Positions 7,342 through 48,418 are shown, counted from the stretch's first letter. The stretch: DNA of 64,000 nucleotides from Saccostrea cucullata (GCF_032062105.1 NW_026925239.1:62001-126000), one strand, 5' to 3'. Numbers and translations: made by a program. The notes: generated by a model not told the origin, from the sequence alone.

Positions 7342-7723
7342 TTACATGGAAGTGTTCCTTTAAGGACTTATACTTCAAACTTAAAGGTGCATAGACAGAG
7401 ATTTGAAGGTAATTTTTTGTATAATCTCATGACTTATAAATGTTATAAAGTAAGTAAGTAAGTAATTTATTATACAATTACATTCTTTTGTCAACAGACT
7501 GTATAAAATAACAATAAACACCCGGCCCATCGGGCCTATATGCCACTTTAAACACAAAATAGAAATACAATATACAAAGAAAATAAAGAGCAGAACGTTA
7601 AGAAAATAACAAAAAAGTGAAAGATTGTGATAAATGTTTATATTAATATGCATTTTGTATGCTGAGATTGGAAGTGTCTTTTATAAAGATTATTGGTAAA
7701 TGATAATGACATTGAAATACGTT

Positions 7724-10700
7724 TTATTTTCTATACATAAAGGACTGTCTTCGCATAAATGAAAAATACAAATACTTTGCTACCTGTCTAGGATGATTTG
7801 AAATAAGTTCACATAGTAAATCTATATCTGACCACTCCGTTGGATTAAGACCAGTGTTTTCAAAAAGTTTTGATCGATATTCAGAGTATAAAGGACAGTG
7901 CAGTAAAAAATGAATTTCGTCTTCTACATTGTTTCTAATACAAAGTGTACAAATTCGATCCTCAACAGATTCACCATGACATCTACCGGTTTCTATTCGT
8001 AAAGGTAAAATGCCACTTCTAAATTGTGCTAAAATTGAACGTAAATATTTGGGCATATCAAGTTCTAAATAATTTTCTCTACCAAACGTTGTTTTAAAAT
8101 TAACATAGGTCCTCAGTTTTGGAATGCTTAAAATCTCATTGCACCAAAGGTTTGAGTAATAATTGTGTATTTTTAATTGAACCATATTTATATCTACCAT
8201 AAGCTTTGCCTCGAAATAGTCATCCAACCCTAGTTGGTGTAATATGTCTTTCAAATCACTGCACCAATTATTTTTACACTTATTGTAGTCAACTTCAAAA
8301 ACAATTCTTGTAATTCGATCATTGCCAAAGGATAAAACTCTATTCCAATATCTGATTACACTTATCCAATGTCTATACTGACTTGGAATCCATCCAGTGT
8401 CCCCATAAACCCCTAATGTAGGAGCAAAACGGTGAACCCCAATAAAATACCTAATAGCTCTGTTCTGTATATTATCTATAGGCTGGAATTTTTTGTAACC
8501 CCAGACACTGGATGCATAATCCAAAACAGGTATGACACAAGAGTAAAACAGTTTTTCATAAGCATTAAACCTGAAATCTTTATTACTATGAATCGAAGAT
8601 ATAATTTTCCCTAGTGCACGTCCCCCTGCTTTAGCAAGATTTTCTGCATTTTTCATGAAATTACCAGTGTGCGTAAATGTTATACCTAAATACTTATAAT
8701 TTTCAACTGTTTCTAACTTATTTAGTCCTATAGTGAATTCACAATTGGCTGCCCTTGACCTAGTTTTATTAAAATGTACACACTTAGATTTTTTGGTGTT
8801 TATAAGAACTCTCCAACGTCTACACCAGCTATGTAGTTTATCTAGCATAATTTGTAAATCTTCAGGAGACTTGGCTATTAAAGCGATGTCATCTGCATAT
8901 AATAAGATGGACAATTTTCGATCAACTAGTTCTATGCCTAAATTAAGATTATTAATATCCTGTACCAGATCATTAATAAAAATTGAAAACAGGGTAGGGG
9001 ATAAATTATCTCCTTGTTTAACACCAGTTTTGCAACTAAACCAATTTGTGAGCTTATTATTCACTCTTACACAGGATTCTGAACTTTGGTAAATATTCTT
9101 TATCGAATTATAAACTTTTCCATCTATATTATGTAATAAAAGTTTGTAAAGCATCATATCCCTATCAACAAAATCAAAACATTTTTGAAGGTCAATAAAT
9201 GCAACATAGAGATTTTTATTGTTTTGGACTAAACTATTCAATGTAAATAAATGATCTTCACACGATCTTTCCTTTCTAAACCCATTTTGTTCATCTGCTA
9301 AAATGTCGTTATTCTCTAAATAACTCATAATTCTTTTGTTTATGAAGGAACTGTACAGTTTGCTAATGCATGGCAACAGGCTCACTCCACGGTAATTCAT
9401 TGGGACACGTTTGTCTGAAGAGGGATCCTTAAGAATAGGGCATATTATTGCTTTCCTCCACACCGAGGGGATCATGCTTGTATCGATAATATATTGAAAA
9501 AGACGACATATTGTGTTGATAACAACTGGATATTTCAAAACACTGTAAGGAATTTCGTCGAATCCACAAGCCGAATTGGATTTTGCACGCATCACTATAT
9601 CAGAAATTTCCTGAAACGATACATCACGATTAATTTCTTCGTTACACTGGTACAATTCTTCATCCATCCGGCGTTCTCTGAAATCTTTATCTGATTTTGA
9701 TTCGTTGTAGTGGACGTTATCAAATTCGGTACTTCCACACCCGTTATACAGATTTTCAAAATCAACTCTCCATCGTTCCAAGATTTCCTGTTCGTTGAAT
9801 ATACTATTTCCTTCATCATCCAAAACCTCCATTGGTATATTGTGTTCATTTCTAGGGCCAAGGTTTCGAATTTTATTCCAGAATTCATTTGGATTTGTCG
9901 AACTCATATCTTCTATTACATTAGCAAATGATTTCTTATAGGTGCGTTCAGCGCGTCTAAGAGTTTTATCAAATAAATCTCGTGCTTCGATATATTCCCG
10001 TCTAAGAGCAGATTTGACTTTTCTTTCCCCCTTATATCGTATGAAATTATTTTCTTTTTCTCGTGTCACGTTCCATAGATCTGTTAATTGGTCTGTCCAA
10101 TATGGTTTGCTATTTTTAAAACGTTTCTTATTACTTCTTGTTAAAACTTTTGGAAGTTTGGATTCCATTTCAGCATAAATTATTTCACATAGCTGTTCAT
10201 AAATCTCGTCAATACTTTCTTGTGTTTTTCGGCTGTTTTCAATGAGATCGATTGTCGCTATCAAGGCAGACCGTCTCAACTCACTTGACATAAAATCATG
10301 TGGGATCTTATTAAATTGAAAACGATTTTGACAGTGTGCACTTTTTGGGATACTAGGAACTAGACAACAATCGGATAAATTAAATTCACACATGATGACG
10401 GAATGATCAGGAAGTTTAGATTTTTCCCCGACAAATTTCAATAGTTCAAATTCCGCTACAATATTCTGTATAGTTAAAACCGTGAAGTTCTTGATTCGTC
10501 TAAATACATCTATTGGTACACATATATAATCTACTACAGATTTTCCCTTCCTTGAAATGCATGTGAAGTTATCATCTGGGAATCTACCATTCAATACACA
10601 GAAATTTGCTTCATTGAGAAAGTCAATTAATTCATGCCCGTGTTGATTAACAGTGTTGTCTATAGCTGTGCGATTAGGGATATGATCAATGTCTTGAAGT

Positions 10701-11209
10701 ACGTCATTCGAATGGCCAATTCTAGAGTTTAGGTCACCCATCACAAAAATAGCGTCACTTTCGCAATTCAAATAAATCTGTGTTAACAGATGTGTATAGA
10801 AACCTTGAGCATCTCGCCCTCTGTTAGAATATTCGGGTGGTAAATAACATGCAAACACAGTGAATTCAAAATCAGAACTACGGTTTTTCAGCTTTATTCC
10901 AAGTATACCATCAACCTTTTTGTCAATCACTAATATCTCAAACTGATCAGATAACCATTCTTTTATAAATATACCGACGCCACCGGAAGGTTTGGGTGCA
11001 TTTACATGTATATTTCTTCTATTAAAACCAAACCACCTATAACCTGGAATTTCGATATTATTTTCTTCTTTTAGATGTGTTTCACTAACGGCAATTACAT
11101 CATAACTTAGTGCACAAATAATTTGGTTTCTAAGTTCACCGTTTTCTTTTGTCCAACCACAGACATTTAAATGACCTAATTTAAGACTGTCAATAGGCCG
11201 GGAAAGTCC
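7724..11209 (-). CDS. LINE ORF2: AP endonuclease + reverse transcriptase + C-terminal CCHC (1161 aa open frame, no AUG at its start)
   Basis: Frame is open 93 codons upstream of the tracked GTG start and carries APE motifs HLNVCG, VSETHL, SGGVGIFI, followed by GDLNS, VVDY, LPDH; RT motifs QNGFRK, FIDLQKCFD, QGDNLSP, YADD, YKYLG. Confidence 0.93.
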   Translation of the reverse strand, partial: GLSRPIDSLKLGHLNVCGWTKENGELRNQIICALSYDVIAVSETHLKEENNIEIPGYRWFGFNRRNIHVNAPKPSGGVGIFIKEWLSDQFEILVIDKKVDGILGIKLKNRSSDFEFTVFACYLPPEYSNRGRDAQGFYTHLLTQIYLNCESDAIFVMGDLNSRIGHSNDVLQDIDHIPNRTAIDNTVNQHGHELIDFLNEANFCVLNGRFPDDNFTCISRKGKSVVDYICVPIDVFRRIKNFTVLTIQNIVAEFELLKFVGEKSKLPDHSVIMCEFNLSDCCLVPSIPKSAHCQNRFQFNKIPHDFMSSELRRSALIATIDLIENSRKTQESIDEIYEQLCEIIYAEMESKLPKVLTRSNKKRFKNSKPYWTDQLTDLWNVTREKENNFIRYKGERKVKSALRREYIEARDLFDKTLRRAERTYKKSFANVIEDMSSTNPNEFWNKIRNLGPRNEHNIPMEVLDDEGNSIFNEQEILERWRVDFENLYNGCGSTEFDNVHYNESKSDKDFRERRMDEELYQCNEEINRDVSFQEISDIVMRAKSNSACGFDEIPYSVLKYPVVINTICRLFQYIIDTSMIPSVWRKAIICPILKDPSSDKRVPMNYRGVSLLPCISKLYSSFINKRIMSYLENNDILADEQNGFRKERSCEDHLFTLNSLVQNNKNLYVAFIDLQKCFDFVDRDMMLYKLLLHNIDGKVYNSIKNIYQSSESCVRVNNKLTNWFSCKTGVKQGDNLSPTLFSIFINDLVQDINNLNLGIELVDRKLSILLYADDIALIAKSPEDLQIMLDKLHSWCRRWRVLINTKKSKCVHFNKTRSRAANCEFTIGLNKLETVENYKYLGITFTHTGNFMKNAENLAKAGGRALGKIISSIHSNKDFRFNAYEKLFYSCVIPVLDYASSVWGYKKFQPIDNIQNRAIRYFIGVHRFAPTLGVYGDTGWIPSQYRHWISVIRYWNRVLSFGNDRITRIVFEVDYNKCKNNWCSDLKDILHQLGLDDYFEAKLMVDINMVQLKIHNYYSNLWCNEILSIPKLRTYVNFKTTFGRENYLELDMPKYLRSILAQFRSGILPLRIETGRCHGESVEDRICTLCIRNNVEDEIHFLLHCPLYSEYRSKLFENTGLNPTEWSDIDLLCELISNHPRQVAKYLYFSFMRRQSFMYRK

Positions 11210-12103
11210 CTACAGGTGGTCCTCGCGATCTTGATCATGAAAGTCGGGTGAGTTGTTTTGTTGTGTGTTTTGAGTTTTTTTCACGATTCTTCCATTGGAA
11301 GTTATGCGAAATTGGTTGCCGTTTGGAATCTGATTCAGGATAGTTTTTGCGTTAAGCTCTATCAATCTCTCTGTGTGTGATTTTGAGGATCTAAGAAAGA
11401 CCGATTTATATGCTTCAACATTTTGTAGATCCCGTTTCTTTCGTAGAATTTCTATTTTCTCGTCAACTGAGCGGAAACTAATTTTGACTAGACCGGGTCT
11501 GCCGAAACCTCTGCTCTTTAGCCGTGCCGCCGCAACTACTTTGACAGAATCACTTAGGTGACTAATAATATCATTAGCAATCTCGAAAATATTCTCATCC
11601 TCACACTGCCTAACGTTATTTGCAATTATCGTGAGCTCGGGATCAAAAAGCGTGTTCGCCTGACTTTTCTTGTTTGTACCGCTTGCCAATTCTTGTTCGT
11701 ATTCAGGTCGTTCTAGATTCTCAACCTTTTGCATTCTTTCAATGAGTGCGTCAACCGACCGTGACAGCGAATCGATTTGTCCCTGATGTCTGCCAAGTTC
11801 AAGGTCAAAATCTGATTTCATTGCTTTGAATTTTTCGTCAATGCTTGCCATGAACTCGTTACGAAATTTATCTAATTTGCTATCAAACGACGACCTTAGT
11901 TCTTTTTGACCTTTCTGAAGGCTGCTTACCGCGTCTGCTATAACAGTCATCTGATCAATTATTTTCGTTTCAAAATCTTTGACATTCGATTCATCCTTTC
12001 CATCCGCCATTTTGATCATTTTGCTGGGGGGCTTCTCGGTTTGCCCGTCTGACGAAAGCCTACGCCTCTCCCTTTCCCATATTTCTGCCATTTTCTCTTT
12101 CAT
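11210..12103 (-). CDS. LINE ORF1 protein (coiled coil + RRM/CTD-like), 297 aa from first ATG
   Basis: Heptad-rich central region, then RPGLVKISFRS..K..IL.K..L...VFLR motif typical of L1-type ORF1p; lies directly upstream of ORF2. Confidence 0.85.
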   Translation of the reverse strand: MKEKMAEIWERERRRLSSDGQTEKPPSKMIKMADGKDESNVKDFETKIIDQMTVIADAVSSLQKGQKELRSSFDSKLDKFRNEFMASIDEKFKAMKSDFDLELGRHQGQIDSLSRSVDALIERMQKVENLERPEYEQELASGTNKKSQANTLFDPELTIIANNVRQCEDENIFEIANDIISHLSDSVKVVAAARLKSRGFGRPGLVKISFRSVDEKIEILRKKRDLQNVEAYKSVFLRSSKSHTERLIELNAKTILNQIPNGNQFRITSNGRIVKKTQNTQQNNSPDFHDQDREDHL

Positions 12104-37716: not shown

Positions 37717-38601
37717 TATGGGTGAAGGGGAACAAAAATTGTGAATTTCATGATCCCTGCCCCCCTGGGGCCTGAGGGGTGGGGCCAAAACCACTAAAAT
37801 TAATGCAATCTTAAAAAATCTTCTTCTTTACTCCTGGAAATCAAGCAGTCAAACTGTTTGCATGATTGTAATTTCCTCTACCAAAATTGTGATATATTCA
37901 TGGCCCTGGGGTCAGGGGTTCTAGTGCTAGGGTGGGGCTAAATAATTAGGTAGTGAAAATGCATTATTTCTTTGAAATTCTTCTTTTCTGCTCCTGGGTA
38001 TTAAATAAACCAACTAAATACATAGTTATGATGAGCAAGAGTGCCTCTACCAAAATTGTGAATTTTATGGCCCCAGGGAGGGGTTCTGGTGTTAGGGCGG
38101 GGCTCTATTGATTATATAGTAAAAAAACATGAATGAAAATCTTCTTCTCTGCTCCTTATTTACTAAGTGCATAGTTATGTTGAGCTAGAGTGCCTCTACC
38201 TGAATTTTAAGGCCCCAGGGTCAGGGGTTCTGATGTTAGGGCGTCGCTCTATTAATTATGTAGTAAAAATACATTAATTTTTCGAAAATTTTCTTCTCTG
38301 CTCCTGGGTATTAAATAAACTAACTAAGTGCATAGTTATGATGAGCAAGAGTGCCTCTACCAAAATTGTGAATTTTATGGCCCCAGGGTCAGGGGTTCTG
38401 GTGTTAGGGCGGGGCTATATAGATTATATAGTGAAAATGCATTATTTCTTTGAAAATATTTTTCTCTGCTCCTGGGTATTAAATAAACCAACTAAGTGCA
38501 TAGTTATGATGAGCAAGAGTGCCTCTACCAAAATTGTTAATTTAATGGCCCCAGGGTCAGGGGTTCTGGTGTTAGGGCGGGCCTATATAGATTATAGAGT
38601 G

Positions 38602-38635
<34 letters not shown>

Positions 38636-39411
38636 GCTCCTGGGTATTAAATAAACAAACTAAGTACATAGTTATGATGATCAAGAGTGCCTCTACCAAA
38701 ATTGTGAATTTTATGGCCCCAGGGTCAGGGGAAATGATTATATAGTGAAAATACATGAATTCTTTGAAAATCTTCTTCTCTGCTCCTAGGATTTAAATAA
38801 ACTAAGTACATAGTTATGATGAGCAGGAATGCCTCTTCAGAAATTGTATATTTTATAGCCCCAGGGTCAGGGGTTTGGTGTCAGGGCGGGGCTCTATTGA
38901 TTATAAAGTGAAAATACATTAAGTCTTTGAAAATCTTCTTCTCTGCTCTAGGGTATTAAGCAGATGAACTACCTATGTAGTTATGATGGACAAGGGCCCT
39001 AATCTTCAAGAATTGTGAATTTCAAGGCCCCAGGGTCAGGGGTACCATAGAAGAGGGGGGTGGGGGCTCTACTAATATACTGAAAATGAATGAATGGTTT
39101 GAAATTTGCTCCTTGATATTAATCAAATATCAAGGCCTAAGGGTCGGGGGTTCATGTGTGGTAGGGGCACTACTGATTATTGCTGAATATTACTGATTAG
39201 TTGAAATGCATTTTTTGCTCCCCTACCCTGGGTATTGGCATTAAGTTAACAAACTAAGCAACTGTTAAGTGTATTGTTATGATGATCAATGGTGCCTCTT
39301 TCAAAATTGTGAATGCCATAGCATCTGGCTTAAAACATGAATCAAATTCAATCACTGGAAAGTTTGTTGCATAATGCTCAGGTGACCTATAAGGCCCATG
39401 GGCCTCTTGTT
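37568..39411 (+). mobile_element. HINE family B carrying ~168-bp (Cg170-like) satellite units
   Basis: 5' AGGTCACCTGAG-TAAA-CTCAGGTGACCT hairpin, GTCC/GTGC microsatellite, ~168-bp units, 3' CTCAGGTGACCT + AGGCCCATGGGCCT + CTTGTT. Confidence 0.88.
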
Positions 39412-46390: not shown

Positions 46391-46819
46391 TTACAAAATC
46401 ACAATACTCCCATTGCACTGATCAGTACCTAATTTTTTCAGATCTCTCTGAAACTGACTGTCAATTGACAATTGTACTTCAGCATCAAGTAATGTTAACA
46501 TATTGAGTACTTCAGTGTCACTTATAACTTTCTCCACCTGTGGTCCATTGAATTCCTCGATTAGTTTGACACAATCTTTGCGATTAATCATTCCCAAGAT
46601 TTCTGATAGGTAATGAAGGTGCCTCTTCTGAATTATTTTTCTTGAGTGCAGCAACCTAAGAATGTCTGCTGAGGTTTGACATCTGGCTGTTTCTCTTCGA
46701 GTTAAGATTTTGTCCACCTCCAACAGAAGTTTGATGTTGGACAAGTCTTCCTGTGTCAGCTTCAGTGAAATATTTAGCAGGAGTTGAGCAAACTTTGATA
46801 TTTTACGTTCATCTTCCAT
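46391..46819 (-). CDS. Death effector domain (DED)-only protein 2, nested antisense in SLCO intron 2
   Basis: FAQLLLNISLKLTQEDLSNIKLLL...SADILRLLHSRKII..RHLHYLSEILGMINRKDCVKLI fits the six-helix DED pattern; ATG in good context (ATCATGG). Confidence 0.8.
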   Translation of the reverse strand: MEDERKISKFAQLLLNISLKLTQEDLSNIKLLLEVDKILTRRETARCQTSADILRLLHSRKIIQKRHLHYLSEILGMINRKDCVKLIEEFNGPQVEKVISDTEVLNMLTLLDAEVQLSIDSQFQRDLKKLGTDQCNGSIVIL

Positions 46820-47016
46820 GATGTCTGTCTCTGAGGGAATTTTGGAAATGAATTTCCCTATGGTCTATATTTAAATCACGCAATCAATAGAAACACCTCA
46901 GTTAGGTACTTTAAATACCTGTTATTATGTCCAATGATAATGATAGAGTCATGGTGCATGATTCACATGTTCTTGTATAAAACATTATTTAATGCATGAA
47001 CAATTCTGGAATACAC

Positions 47017-47562
47017 TCAAATGAAGGAGGATTTTCTCCTTATTTTGTCCTCATCACTATGGTTACTTTGGGTGTCCATCTCATCAAAATCTCCAGTTAA
47101 AGTAATACAATTGCTCGAGGGCCTCCAAGATACTTCTGTGCTTATATCCCTCCTCAGAACCACCATATCTGAAGATCTCCTCAATCTAACTTCAGAATCA
47201 TCATTGAAATGCTCTGTTTTGTCGAGGTCCTGTATTTCCAATTTCATCTTGAGGTTTTCTTGCTCCTCTTGGTATTTCTGAATTCTTTTGACACAGTCCT
47301 GGCGATGAATGCGCCCCAGTATTTCTATCAACAGGGTTAGGTCGTCTTCACGTATCAACTCCTTGTGAAACATAAACCTCAGCAGGTCGGCCATATTCTG
47401 TAGAGCTTGTCCCTCCCTTTGCCTTATGTGGCCACTGACTTCTAGCAGTAACTTGACTTTGGACAGTTCAGACTCGGTAAGATGATCATCTATGTCCAGA
47501 AGGAGCTGGGCCAGAGGTGTGATAGTTAGGGTCCTCCCAGATTGAGCAGCCATCCTTGTCAT
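47017..47562 (-). CDS. Death effector domain (DED)-only protein 1, nested antisense in SLCO intron 2 (alternative ATG at 47553)
   Basis: LAQLLLDIDDHLTESELSKVKLLL...MADLLRFMFHKELIREDDLTLLIEILGRIHRQDCVKRIQKY: DED pattern, paralogous to the neighbouring ORF. Confidence 0.82.
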   Translation of the reverse strand: MTRMAAQSGRTLTITPLAQLLLDIDDHLTESELSKVKLLLEVSGHIRQREGQALQNMADLLRFMFHKELIREDDLTLLIEILGRIHRQDCVKRIQKYQEEQENLKMKLEIQDLDKTEHFNDDSEVRLRRSSDMVVLRRDISTEVSWRPSSNCITLTGDFDEMDTQSNHSDEDKIRRKSSFI

Positions 47563-48418
47563 GTAGAATCGCACGGAATGAAGGTGCAGAAAGTAGGGTA
47601 CCTAATTCAGATTAGGCATAAACCTCAGGTGTATTGAATTGCATTTCGGTTACACAAGTCACTTTTCTGCTCCACTCATGTGTTTTATGAAGATAAACTT
47701 AAAGTTGGATTTTATAAGGATCCTCTCGGAATGAGCAGCCTACCTTATCACATAGAGACACATTAAATGAAAGCAAAGATTGCAGGGTAGTCCTGATTTT
47801 GATTACTCACAAACCTAAGGTGTATTGAATTGTCTTTCAATTGCACAAGTCACATTTTTCATCTTCTCCTGTGTAATACATGTATGAAAATAAACTTAAG
47901 GTTGACTCTCATAAGGTGCATTCCAATGTCCATAAGTTTTCACCTGTGTATAATTAGATTACAAAGAATTGTAGTTATCTTTAGGAATGTGAATCAGATG
48001 TGCATGCTCTTCTTTTATCTTGATATATTGTAATTCATGTGTGAGAGAATGTTGAAATGCTGTAGCCTTCCATTTAATAAGGAGGTGGGCTAGATGAGTG
48101 TTCAGTTTCCTTGATTGATTTATCTGATGACCAACATTTTAGGGGTGTAGGGGAGGGGGGTTATAGAGGAATCAACATGCATAGGCTACCCTATTCCTTA
48201 CCATTATAAAATTAACTCTGGCATCATCACTGGTGTGTGCAGCATGCATGCATGTTTAAGAATTTTATGCACCATCAGTTAGCCACAAATATACATTCCA
48301 ATGAATGAAAATTTAGTCAACCTTTAGGTTATTGAACCTTCTACAGTAAAACTTAGTTATAACAAAGTTCTGGGTACCTAAGAATAACCTTATTAATGTT
48401 ATATCTATCATTTTGTAG

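Follow-up and report, generated by a model that had tools for sequence, protein, structure and literature searches.

An in-frame UAG-G junction and a predicted long-range RNA helix suggest tombusvirus-like readthrough in a clade of LINEs from Saccostrea cucullata

Known stimulators of stop codon readthrough begin 7-9 nucleotides (nt) past the stop and span 11-12 bp, and UAG-G sites are classed as Type III (PMC3159437, PMC13517186). Tombusviruses are grouped with the Type III UAG-G sites (PMC3159437), and in the tombusvirus CIRV readthrough from p36 to p95 requires a 3.5-kb PRTE-DRTE interaction with a switchable 3' element, and was not demonstrable in a dual-luciferase context (PMC3234231). 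For long interspersed nuclear elements (LINEs), reinitiation has been described in SART1 and L1 (PMC5972666, PMC5009743), and readthrough has been suggested from consensus sequences for the Group 3 non-LTR (long terminal repeat) elements of Paramecium tetraurelia (PMC5405496), so that LINE readthrough is not without precedent. Here we analysed a 64,000-nt stretch of Saccostrea cucullata DNA (GCF_032062105.1, NW_026925239.1:62001-126000), referred to as the window, which carries a LINE whose two open reading frames, ORF1 and ORF2, are joined in frame across a single UAG-G. We suggest with moderate confidence, from comparative sequence analysis, that this stop is read through under stimulation by a long-range helix, giving a minority ORF1-ORF2 fusion, and that a 3' hairpin represents the alternative state of the RNA.

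The LINE is a full-length copy of ~4.77 kb on the minus strand (7450..12220), on which all of its features given below lie, and is 91-93% identical to three sister copies. ORF1 (11210..12103) encodes 297 aa and ends in a TAG at 11212-11210, which together with its +4 G forms the predicted readthrough site (11209..11212). ORF2 (7724..11209) has 1161 open codons and encodes an apurinic/apyrimidinic endonuclease (APE), a reverse transcriptase (RT; YADD at 771) and a C-terminal Cys/His motif (1087-1105). It matches the Pfam families PF03372 and PF00078, and its sequence matches in the PDB were R2 and L1 ORF2p; a profile search of the PDB with the APE alignment returned nothing at E 0.01. An earlier sequence-only reading of this locus had placed the two ORFs in frame across a single UAG, with no AUG in ORF2 before 10741 and with the APE motifs beginning about 13 codons past the stop, and all of this holds. 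The two ORFs share a frame of 1459 aa with one internal stop, HLNV, SETH and GGVG stand at ORF2 codons 13, 42 and 76, and an ATG first appears in frame at codon 157 (10739..10741), inside the endonuclease and at a position that varies among families. The early Asn and Glu of the APE domain are presumably catalytic, as in L1. When ORF2 residues 1-240 were modelled (mean pLDDT 59), the model aligned with the LINE-1 endonuclease along ~235 columns (E 1.9e-8), so that a protein begun at Met157 would be without most of this fold. The predicted layout of ORF1 comprises a coiled coil (41-128), an RRM, a C-terminal domain (CTD) and a low-confidence acidic tail (279-297). No Pfam family scored above cut-off for ORF1; the best Foldseek match of its model (pLDDT 73) was the human L1 ORF1p trimer (E 2.3e-5, with a TM-score of only 0.3-0.4), and on this modelling we class ORF1, with its coiled coil, RRM and CTD, as LINE-1 ORF1p-like.

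The sample consisted of copies from the same genome (own genome) and 50 metagenome loci, 211 loci being examined; collections of viral contigs and genome contigs yielded no relatives. The 197 records with an APE N-terminus, which are not equal to copies since loci overlap, formed 62 clusters (families) at 70% amino-acid identity. In 42 of the 62, ORF1 and ORF2 are in frame across one stop, which is TAG-G in 39 (29 from the own genome and 10 from metagenomes), TAG-A in one, TGA in two and TAA in none. Excluded from this count were 14 families of an AUG type and six truncated or broken ones (L079 and L081 at contig ends; L030, L124, L164 and L202 broken). Upstream of the TAG-G, 34 of the 39 have 100 or more open codons in frame, and the stop lies 13-46 codons from the first APE Asn (246 in L083), in frame throughout. 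A pattern agnostic to the stop found 27 true junctions in the own genome, all of them TAG (26 TAG-G and one TAG-A), with TGG and TAA at none; a 28th match was due to chance, and the reversed control pattern gave 14. As controls, the terminator of ORF2 itself was TAA in 20, TGA in six and TAG in five of 31 elements and never TAG-G, and the codon of the invariant APE Glu was GAA in 33 and GAG in six. The genetic code of Paramecium is reassigned; a reassignment of TAG in these LINEs is ruled out, since TAG terminates ORF2 in those five elements.

The UAG-G context first read from the window copy is thus seen in nearly all in-frame families, and neither a sense codon as the family state at this site nor an AUG near the junction, both of which the sequence-only reading had held up against itself, was found in the TAG clade. 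The in-frame UAG-G junction is a clade-wide trait and not a private mutation. That a one-ORF element has acquired a private nonsense mutation, or that the layout arose by chance, could be argued from the relative P0043, an uninterrupted 1432-aa ORF1-ORF2 protein represented by one sequence, and from one decayed copy that reads TTG, but the stop is common to 42 families from the own genome and metagenome contigs; family conservation refutes this explanation, and we give it almost no credence. Among 220 homologous proteins P0043 was the only full-length ORF1-ORF2; five others with an ORF1 match are mollusc gene models of 675-916 aa and were left uncounted. P0043 carries a bacterial label at source and probably derives from LINE DNA of a host that entered a metagenome bin.

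No shared start codon was found among the 39 TAG-G clusters, a Met occurring in the spacer only in L083 (Met193). Near-cognate codons are present in at most five of the 39 families at any of the first nine positions and are missing altogether in six, while the codon right after the stop begins with G in all 39. These observations bear on the possibility that ribosomes terminate at the UAG and restart in frame without an AUG, by L1-like reinitiation or by stop-go, perhaps aided by the helix described below, so as to give free ORF2p. Translation of L1 ORF2 is reportedly AUG-independent, and a restart at the codon after the stop would keep the frame, with a G-initial codon in every family. Termination-reinitiation has been described for SART1, where downstream structure is needed, and has been proposed for L1 (PMC5972666). 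However, restart leaves unexplained the avoidance of TAA (0 of 42) and the presence of TGA at this register in two families, no near-cognate codon is positionally conserved (CUG, GUG and ACG are absent from 25 of the 39 spacers), and 192 open codons separate the stop from the first Met in L083. Relatives of the true reinitiation type also look different. In the 14 families of the AUG clade, ORF1 terminates further upstream, in any of the three frames and at TAA, TGA or TAG, the spacers are AT-rich, and an ATG lies just before the APE domain; an AUG on or soon after the stop of ORF1, in variable frame, is found in this clade and not in the TAG clade. We therefore consider a restart improbable.

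In an RT tree, 30 TAG rows and 13 AUG rows are split by one change with a support of 93; the tree is a quick version with SH-aLRT values only, midpoint-rooted with its root not established, and has no named reference elements among its rows. RT identity of the TAG rows to the window copy goes down to 32%. An extension of 100-260 aa between the stop and the APE domain was observed in L083, L079, L081, P0016, P0018, P0024 and P0075. In L098 and L112 TGA replaces TAG in the same register and the group B proximal arm (see below) is kept. L162 holds two elements that look intact, each from a different group C family, placed back to back in opposite orientation, and this pair of matches recurs on another contig.

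The stop might also be removed in the RNA, by A-to-I editing of UAG to Trp, by use of TAG/G as a splice acceptor, or by a subgenomic RNA from a promoter at the junction. UAG is a favoured ADAR triplet and YAG/G is the 3' splice consensus. LINE proteins, on the other hand, copy the RNA that encoded them, and by this cis preference edited or spliced RNAs should recur as insertions, yet TGG was found at none of the 27 genomic junctions. In contigs of two RNA runs that span the junction, the TAG is unchanged and joints are absent, with the proviso that contigs drop rare variants, and the bases 5' of the stop are purine-rich with no pyrimidine tract. A junction promoter has been found in Tca2 (PMC2194720), but a subgenomic RNA would still be without an AUG. 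Taken together, removal of the stop at the RNA level appears very improbable.

Two local stems, GGGA-CUU-UCCC and GGCCUA...UAGGUC, had been proposed by the sequence-only reading as the structure following the stop. Local folding does not bear them out: after the window stop it gave a z of +0.52, not above background, and over 42 elements a mean z of -0.07 against synonymous shuffles. A compact gammaretrovirus-like structure within ~60 nt of the stop was not found, pseudoknots not being modelled explicitly, and local stems as stimulator were rejected at this background level except in the L168/L169/L171/L200/L223 subclade. From +9 to +13 the bases are strongly G/C in otherwise AT-rich surroundings.

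The proximal arm of the predicted long-range helix is CCCGGCCUAUUG (11191..11202, positions +8..+19), 12 nt that follow a 7-nt spacer after the stop (11203..11209), dimensions that agree with those of known stimulators (PMC3159437). It is fully complementary, with two G-U pairs, to the distal arm CGAUGGGCCGGG (7521..7532), ~3.7 kb away in the 3' untranslated region (UTR), which consists of a hairpin loop, the 3' strand of the hairpin and three G. The duplex of the two is predicted at -24.0 kcal/mol, against -14.4 at the next-best site. When the best partner of +5..+22 was scanned in each element, it pointed to the 3' end in most. Three groups of families, A, B and C, are distinguished below. 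In all ten group A and B elements the 16-mer at +6..+21 beats all or all but one of ~470 ORF2 windows in its match to the element's own 3' region, and in eight group C elements it ranks 0, 1, 3, 4, 6, 15, 21 and 29 of ~470. In a sliding profile 21 of 29 TAG elements, and none of 13 AUG elements, place the 14-mer at +8 in the top 5%, and the profile drops to 0 of 29 TAG elements at +14 to +18. Among 12 held-out elements six pass, one has only an AU-rich partner, and one whose 3' end was at first cut off ranked 0 of 602 when complete; the other four have instead a local stem from +7..+9 (ranks 0, 0, 3 and 3 of 205). The predicted partner was also found in a further family, L207 (rank 0 of 223). 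A helix about 8 nt past the stop is in this way predicted as distal in 21 of 29 elements and as local in four more.

The pair tables show covariation, position +18 being U-G, C-G, A-U or U-A and position +17 U-A or A-U. Polarity in group C is opposite to that in groups A and B, with a G-rich proximal and a C-rich distal arm, and in some group C families the distal arm lies within the last ORF2 codons. Mean duplex energy is -20.0 kcal/mol for A-A and -7.8 kcal/mol for A-C combinations of group arms. Cognate pairing beats all 100000 permutations across groups, and the within-group permutation p values are 0.048, 0.57 and 0.011. An out-of-frame ATG in the group B motif was rejected as a start, as it opens only a 14-codon frame (L084) and is absent in groups A and C; it is taken as part of the pairing arm. 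On these sequence comparisons, the helix from +8..+19 to the 3' end is more likely to be the stimulator than local hairpins. The earlier proposal that ORF2 is made as a 1459-aa readthrough fusion or by non-AUG reinitiation has gained comparative support on the side of readthrough; the hairpins it named are probably not the stimulator.

The 3' UTR hairpin (7524..7536), with a 5-bp stem and a 3-nt loop, is predicted to exclude the long-range helix and to be excluded by it. The distal arm of groups A and B comprises the hairpin loop plus 3' strand and lies inside a conserved closing stem; the hairpin is predicted in both of these groups and in the L216 family, and is not evident in the other group C families. 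The group A hairpin motif has 238 copies in the genome against none for the reversed control. Twenty loci were fetched around ORF1 matches without a nearby ORF2 match, and in 14 of these either ORF2 is missing between ORF1 and the 3' hairpin region, or the sequence after ORF1 matches that of loci built in this way; 13 belong to five multi-copy families. The hairpin and closing stem are kept in these ORF1-only families where the locus reaches them, whereas the proximal arm is lost or decayed and the stops are TAG-A, TAG-T, TAA-T, TAA-G and TAG-T with a second stop. This pattern suggests that the hairpin is retained wherever mobilisation is required, and TAG-G and the arm only where ORF2 has to be produced. 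The remaining six loci are deletions or 5' fragments, and in four of these a further repeat interrupts a TAG junction. Loci L227-L238, L241, L242 and L245 represent multi-copy, non-autonomous ORF1-only families that have the group A hairpin with a changed loop.

A number of points weigh against stimulated readthrough, or against the helix as its stimulator. Clusters were scored as TAG-G if any member was TAG-G, four of them being ties with broken copies, and families share ancestry, so that the counts are not independent events. The 3' region ends were set by hand, and 17 of the 29 profile elements are those in which the pattern was first noticed. Several of the group C pairings are weak singly (the ranks of 15, 21 and 29), within group B cognate pairs show no advantage over non-cognate ones (the p of 0.57), and position +12 is an A-C mismatch in three of seven group A elements, with one extra mismatch apiece in L147 and L113. 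L083 has no pairing partner despite its TAG-G, and L203 has only an AU-rich one. The whole-RNA minimum-energy fold contains the helix in one of three elements (L148; not the window copy or L089), and forcing the helix in the window copy costs 6 of 817 kcal/mol. The window copy lacks part of the closing stem and may therefore be defective in cis. The two raw RNA runs have a depth of ~1 at the junction and ~0-4 over the element, which is too low for a test of editing. In Tca2 an in-frame stop with predicted structure gave no readthrough from the junction alone (PMC2194720). Finally, the ORF2 start region of the AUG-type L137 is complementary to its 3' UTR over ~19 of 21 nt (rank 5 of 472), so that such pairing need not act on readthrough.

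The L137 pairing and the whole-RNA folds also speak for an explanation in which readthrough occurs through UAG-G and local context, and the helix serves the handover of ORF2p to the 3' end, the damping of ORF2 or the folding of the ribonucleoprotein. Against this, the start of the helix is fixed near +6..+10 from the stop, one subclade has a local stem in its place at that offset, ORF1-only families have lost the proximal arm, and L137 is the only AUG family tested that pairs, no start-to-3' UTR match being found in the others (0 of 15 windows at 5%). We consider such a separate role of the helix unlikely. Readthrough as such, whatever its stimulator, appears quite probable from these comparisons.

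If the long-range helix does stimulate readthrough, most ribosomes would stop at the UAG and release ORF1p, and the helix, positioned at the mRNA entry channel of the ribosome, would allow a near-cognate tRNA to decode the UAG in a minority of rounds. Since the distal-arm hairpin would exclude the helix, the RNA could switch between a readthrough state and one that leaves its 3' end available to reverse transcription, and the elongating ribosome might itself melt the helix. Only RNAs with an intact 3' end would then make much ORF2p, and the coiled coil of the fusion could tether ORF2p into ORF1p trimers on its own RNA, in the manner of Gag-Pol.

Among described systems the element most likely works like a tombusvirus-type readthrough switch, judging from its sequence. 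As is the case in CIRV, an element past the stop is predicted to pair with a 3'-terminal site kilobases away (~3.5 kb there and 3.7 kb here), the product would be a polymerase fusion, and quality control and cis preference have been proposed; the distal site takes part in mutually exclusive structures in CIRV (PMC3234231) and may do so in the LINE. The LINE thus shares a proximal element complementary, with covariation, to a distant 3' site. The tombusvirus proximal element, however, lies within a large stem-loop and its interaction is proven, whereas the LINE arm is a prediction, starts after 7 nt with no conserved local stem, and belongs to a retrotransposon with an L1-like ORF1. MuLV, a gammaretrovirus, shares the UAG-G and purine-rich first spacer bases and, as predicted for the LINE, structure from ~8 nt and a structural protein-polymerase fusion in a retroelement (PMC3159437, PMC13517186), but has a compact local pseudoknot; none was found in the LINE, where local folding is at background in most families. 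In the Group 3 LINEs of Paramecium, too, a single stop separates ORF1 from an in-frame ORF2, but they belong to a ciliate clade, and the parts of PMC5405496 drawn on here describe no stimulator or long-range pairing. With human L1 and Bombyx SART1 the element shares a bicistronic RNA and, by prediction, a low ORF2 output (PMC5972666), and with L1 the modelled ORF1 and endonuclease folds; the L1 spacer is 63 nt long and in SART1 stop and start overlap, each with an AUG (PMC5972666), as in the AUG clade and not the TAG clade. Bivalve RTE-X and Proto2 elements resemble it in their ~5 kb length, APE-RT layout, ORF1 and microsatellite tail, and the passages of PMC10294476 concerned contain nothing on the ORF1-ORF2 junction. 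The predicted long-range signal is unreported in LINEs, LINE readthrough itself having already been suggested; the literature searched describes neither readthrough nor long-range pairing in this LINE group, with Repbase Reports and subscription journals outside the search and a remark in Repbase possible.

With interspersed copies, no LTR and an AATAAA followed by a simple-repeat tail, the element is an APE-type non-LTR retrotransposon. Its NYRG-SLL and LRIETGR motifs presumably point to the RTEX/Proto2 group, and these labels were not found in the literature supplements searched. The nearest named proteins are from bivalves (Mercenaria, 56%). Context on RTE-X and Proto2 is given in parts of PMC10294476, PMC7846101, PMC11203168, PMC3905857 and PMC5753468, which offer no basis for a clade assignment. 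The 5' end of the element is supported by an RNA-run contig ending at 12221, and carries the motif GCGCATGCG (12212..12220), also present upstream of ORF1, near the 5' end, in six other, distant families (L148, L151, L152, L069, L127 and L138). We take this motif to resemble an NRF-1 site, and from its sequence it is likely to be part of an internal promoter. The AATAAA and (TTAC)n tail occupy 7450..7471; the closing-stem strand upstream of the AATAAA is deleted in the window copy and present in the sister copies, leaving the stem ~14 nt short of the three, and the 5' UTR is 11 nt shorter than in the RNA-run contig. The earlier description of the LINE as intact accordingly fits both ORFs and not the UTRs. 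A target-site duplication of at least 6 nt was not found at the window copy. The LINE appears to be inserted in a host repeat, no part of the LINE itself, with terminal 34-nt inverted arms (7385..12520; arms 7385-7418 and 12487-12520). This repeat is high-copy and lies at 7385-7441 and 12452-12520, and a second palindromic repeat (12259-12448) adjoins its 5' end, the flank being high-copy from 12258 onward. Elsewhere in the window, two open frames on the minus strand (46391-46864 and 47017-47601), each with a death effector domain above the Pfam cut-off, are likely exons of a host gene with such domains in tandem, and an open frame of three near-identical ~52-codon repeats on the plus strand (38278-38745) is probably a satellite.

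Since the stimulator probably lies 3.7 kb away, a dual-luciferase reporter of the junction alone could falsely refute readthrough, and junction-only reporters and AUG-based annotation will miss such genes. A wider interpretation, which we put forward tentatively and at somewhat less than even odds, is that a deep LINE lineage makes its RT as a Gag-Pol-like fusion under a 3.7-kb switch, in which the 3' hairpin recognised by the RT licenses readthrough. This would be convergent with tombusviruses, would make ORF2 translation, 3'-end quality control and cis preference one mechanism, and would place the TAG layout as ancestral to the AUG clade on the midpoint-rooted tree. If true, a readthrough switch of plant RNA viruses would be placed in animal genomes, in dozens of families per genome, the fusion would offer a way of bringing RT into the ORF1p particle, and many natural readthrough signals would be supplied. 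The scarcity of LINE ORF2p and its preference for its own RNA are long-standing questions, and to these the TAG clade offers a precise candidate answer, a 12-bp helix between the ORF1 stop and the 3' end, together with natural compensatory variants.

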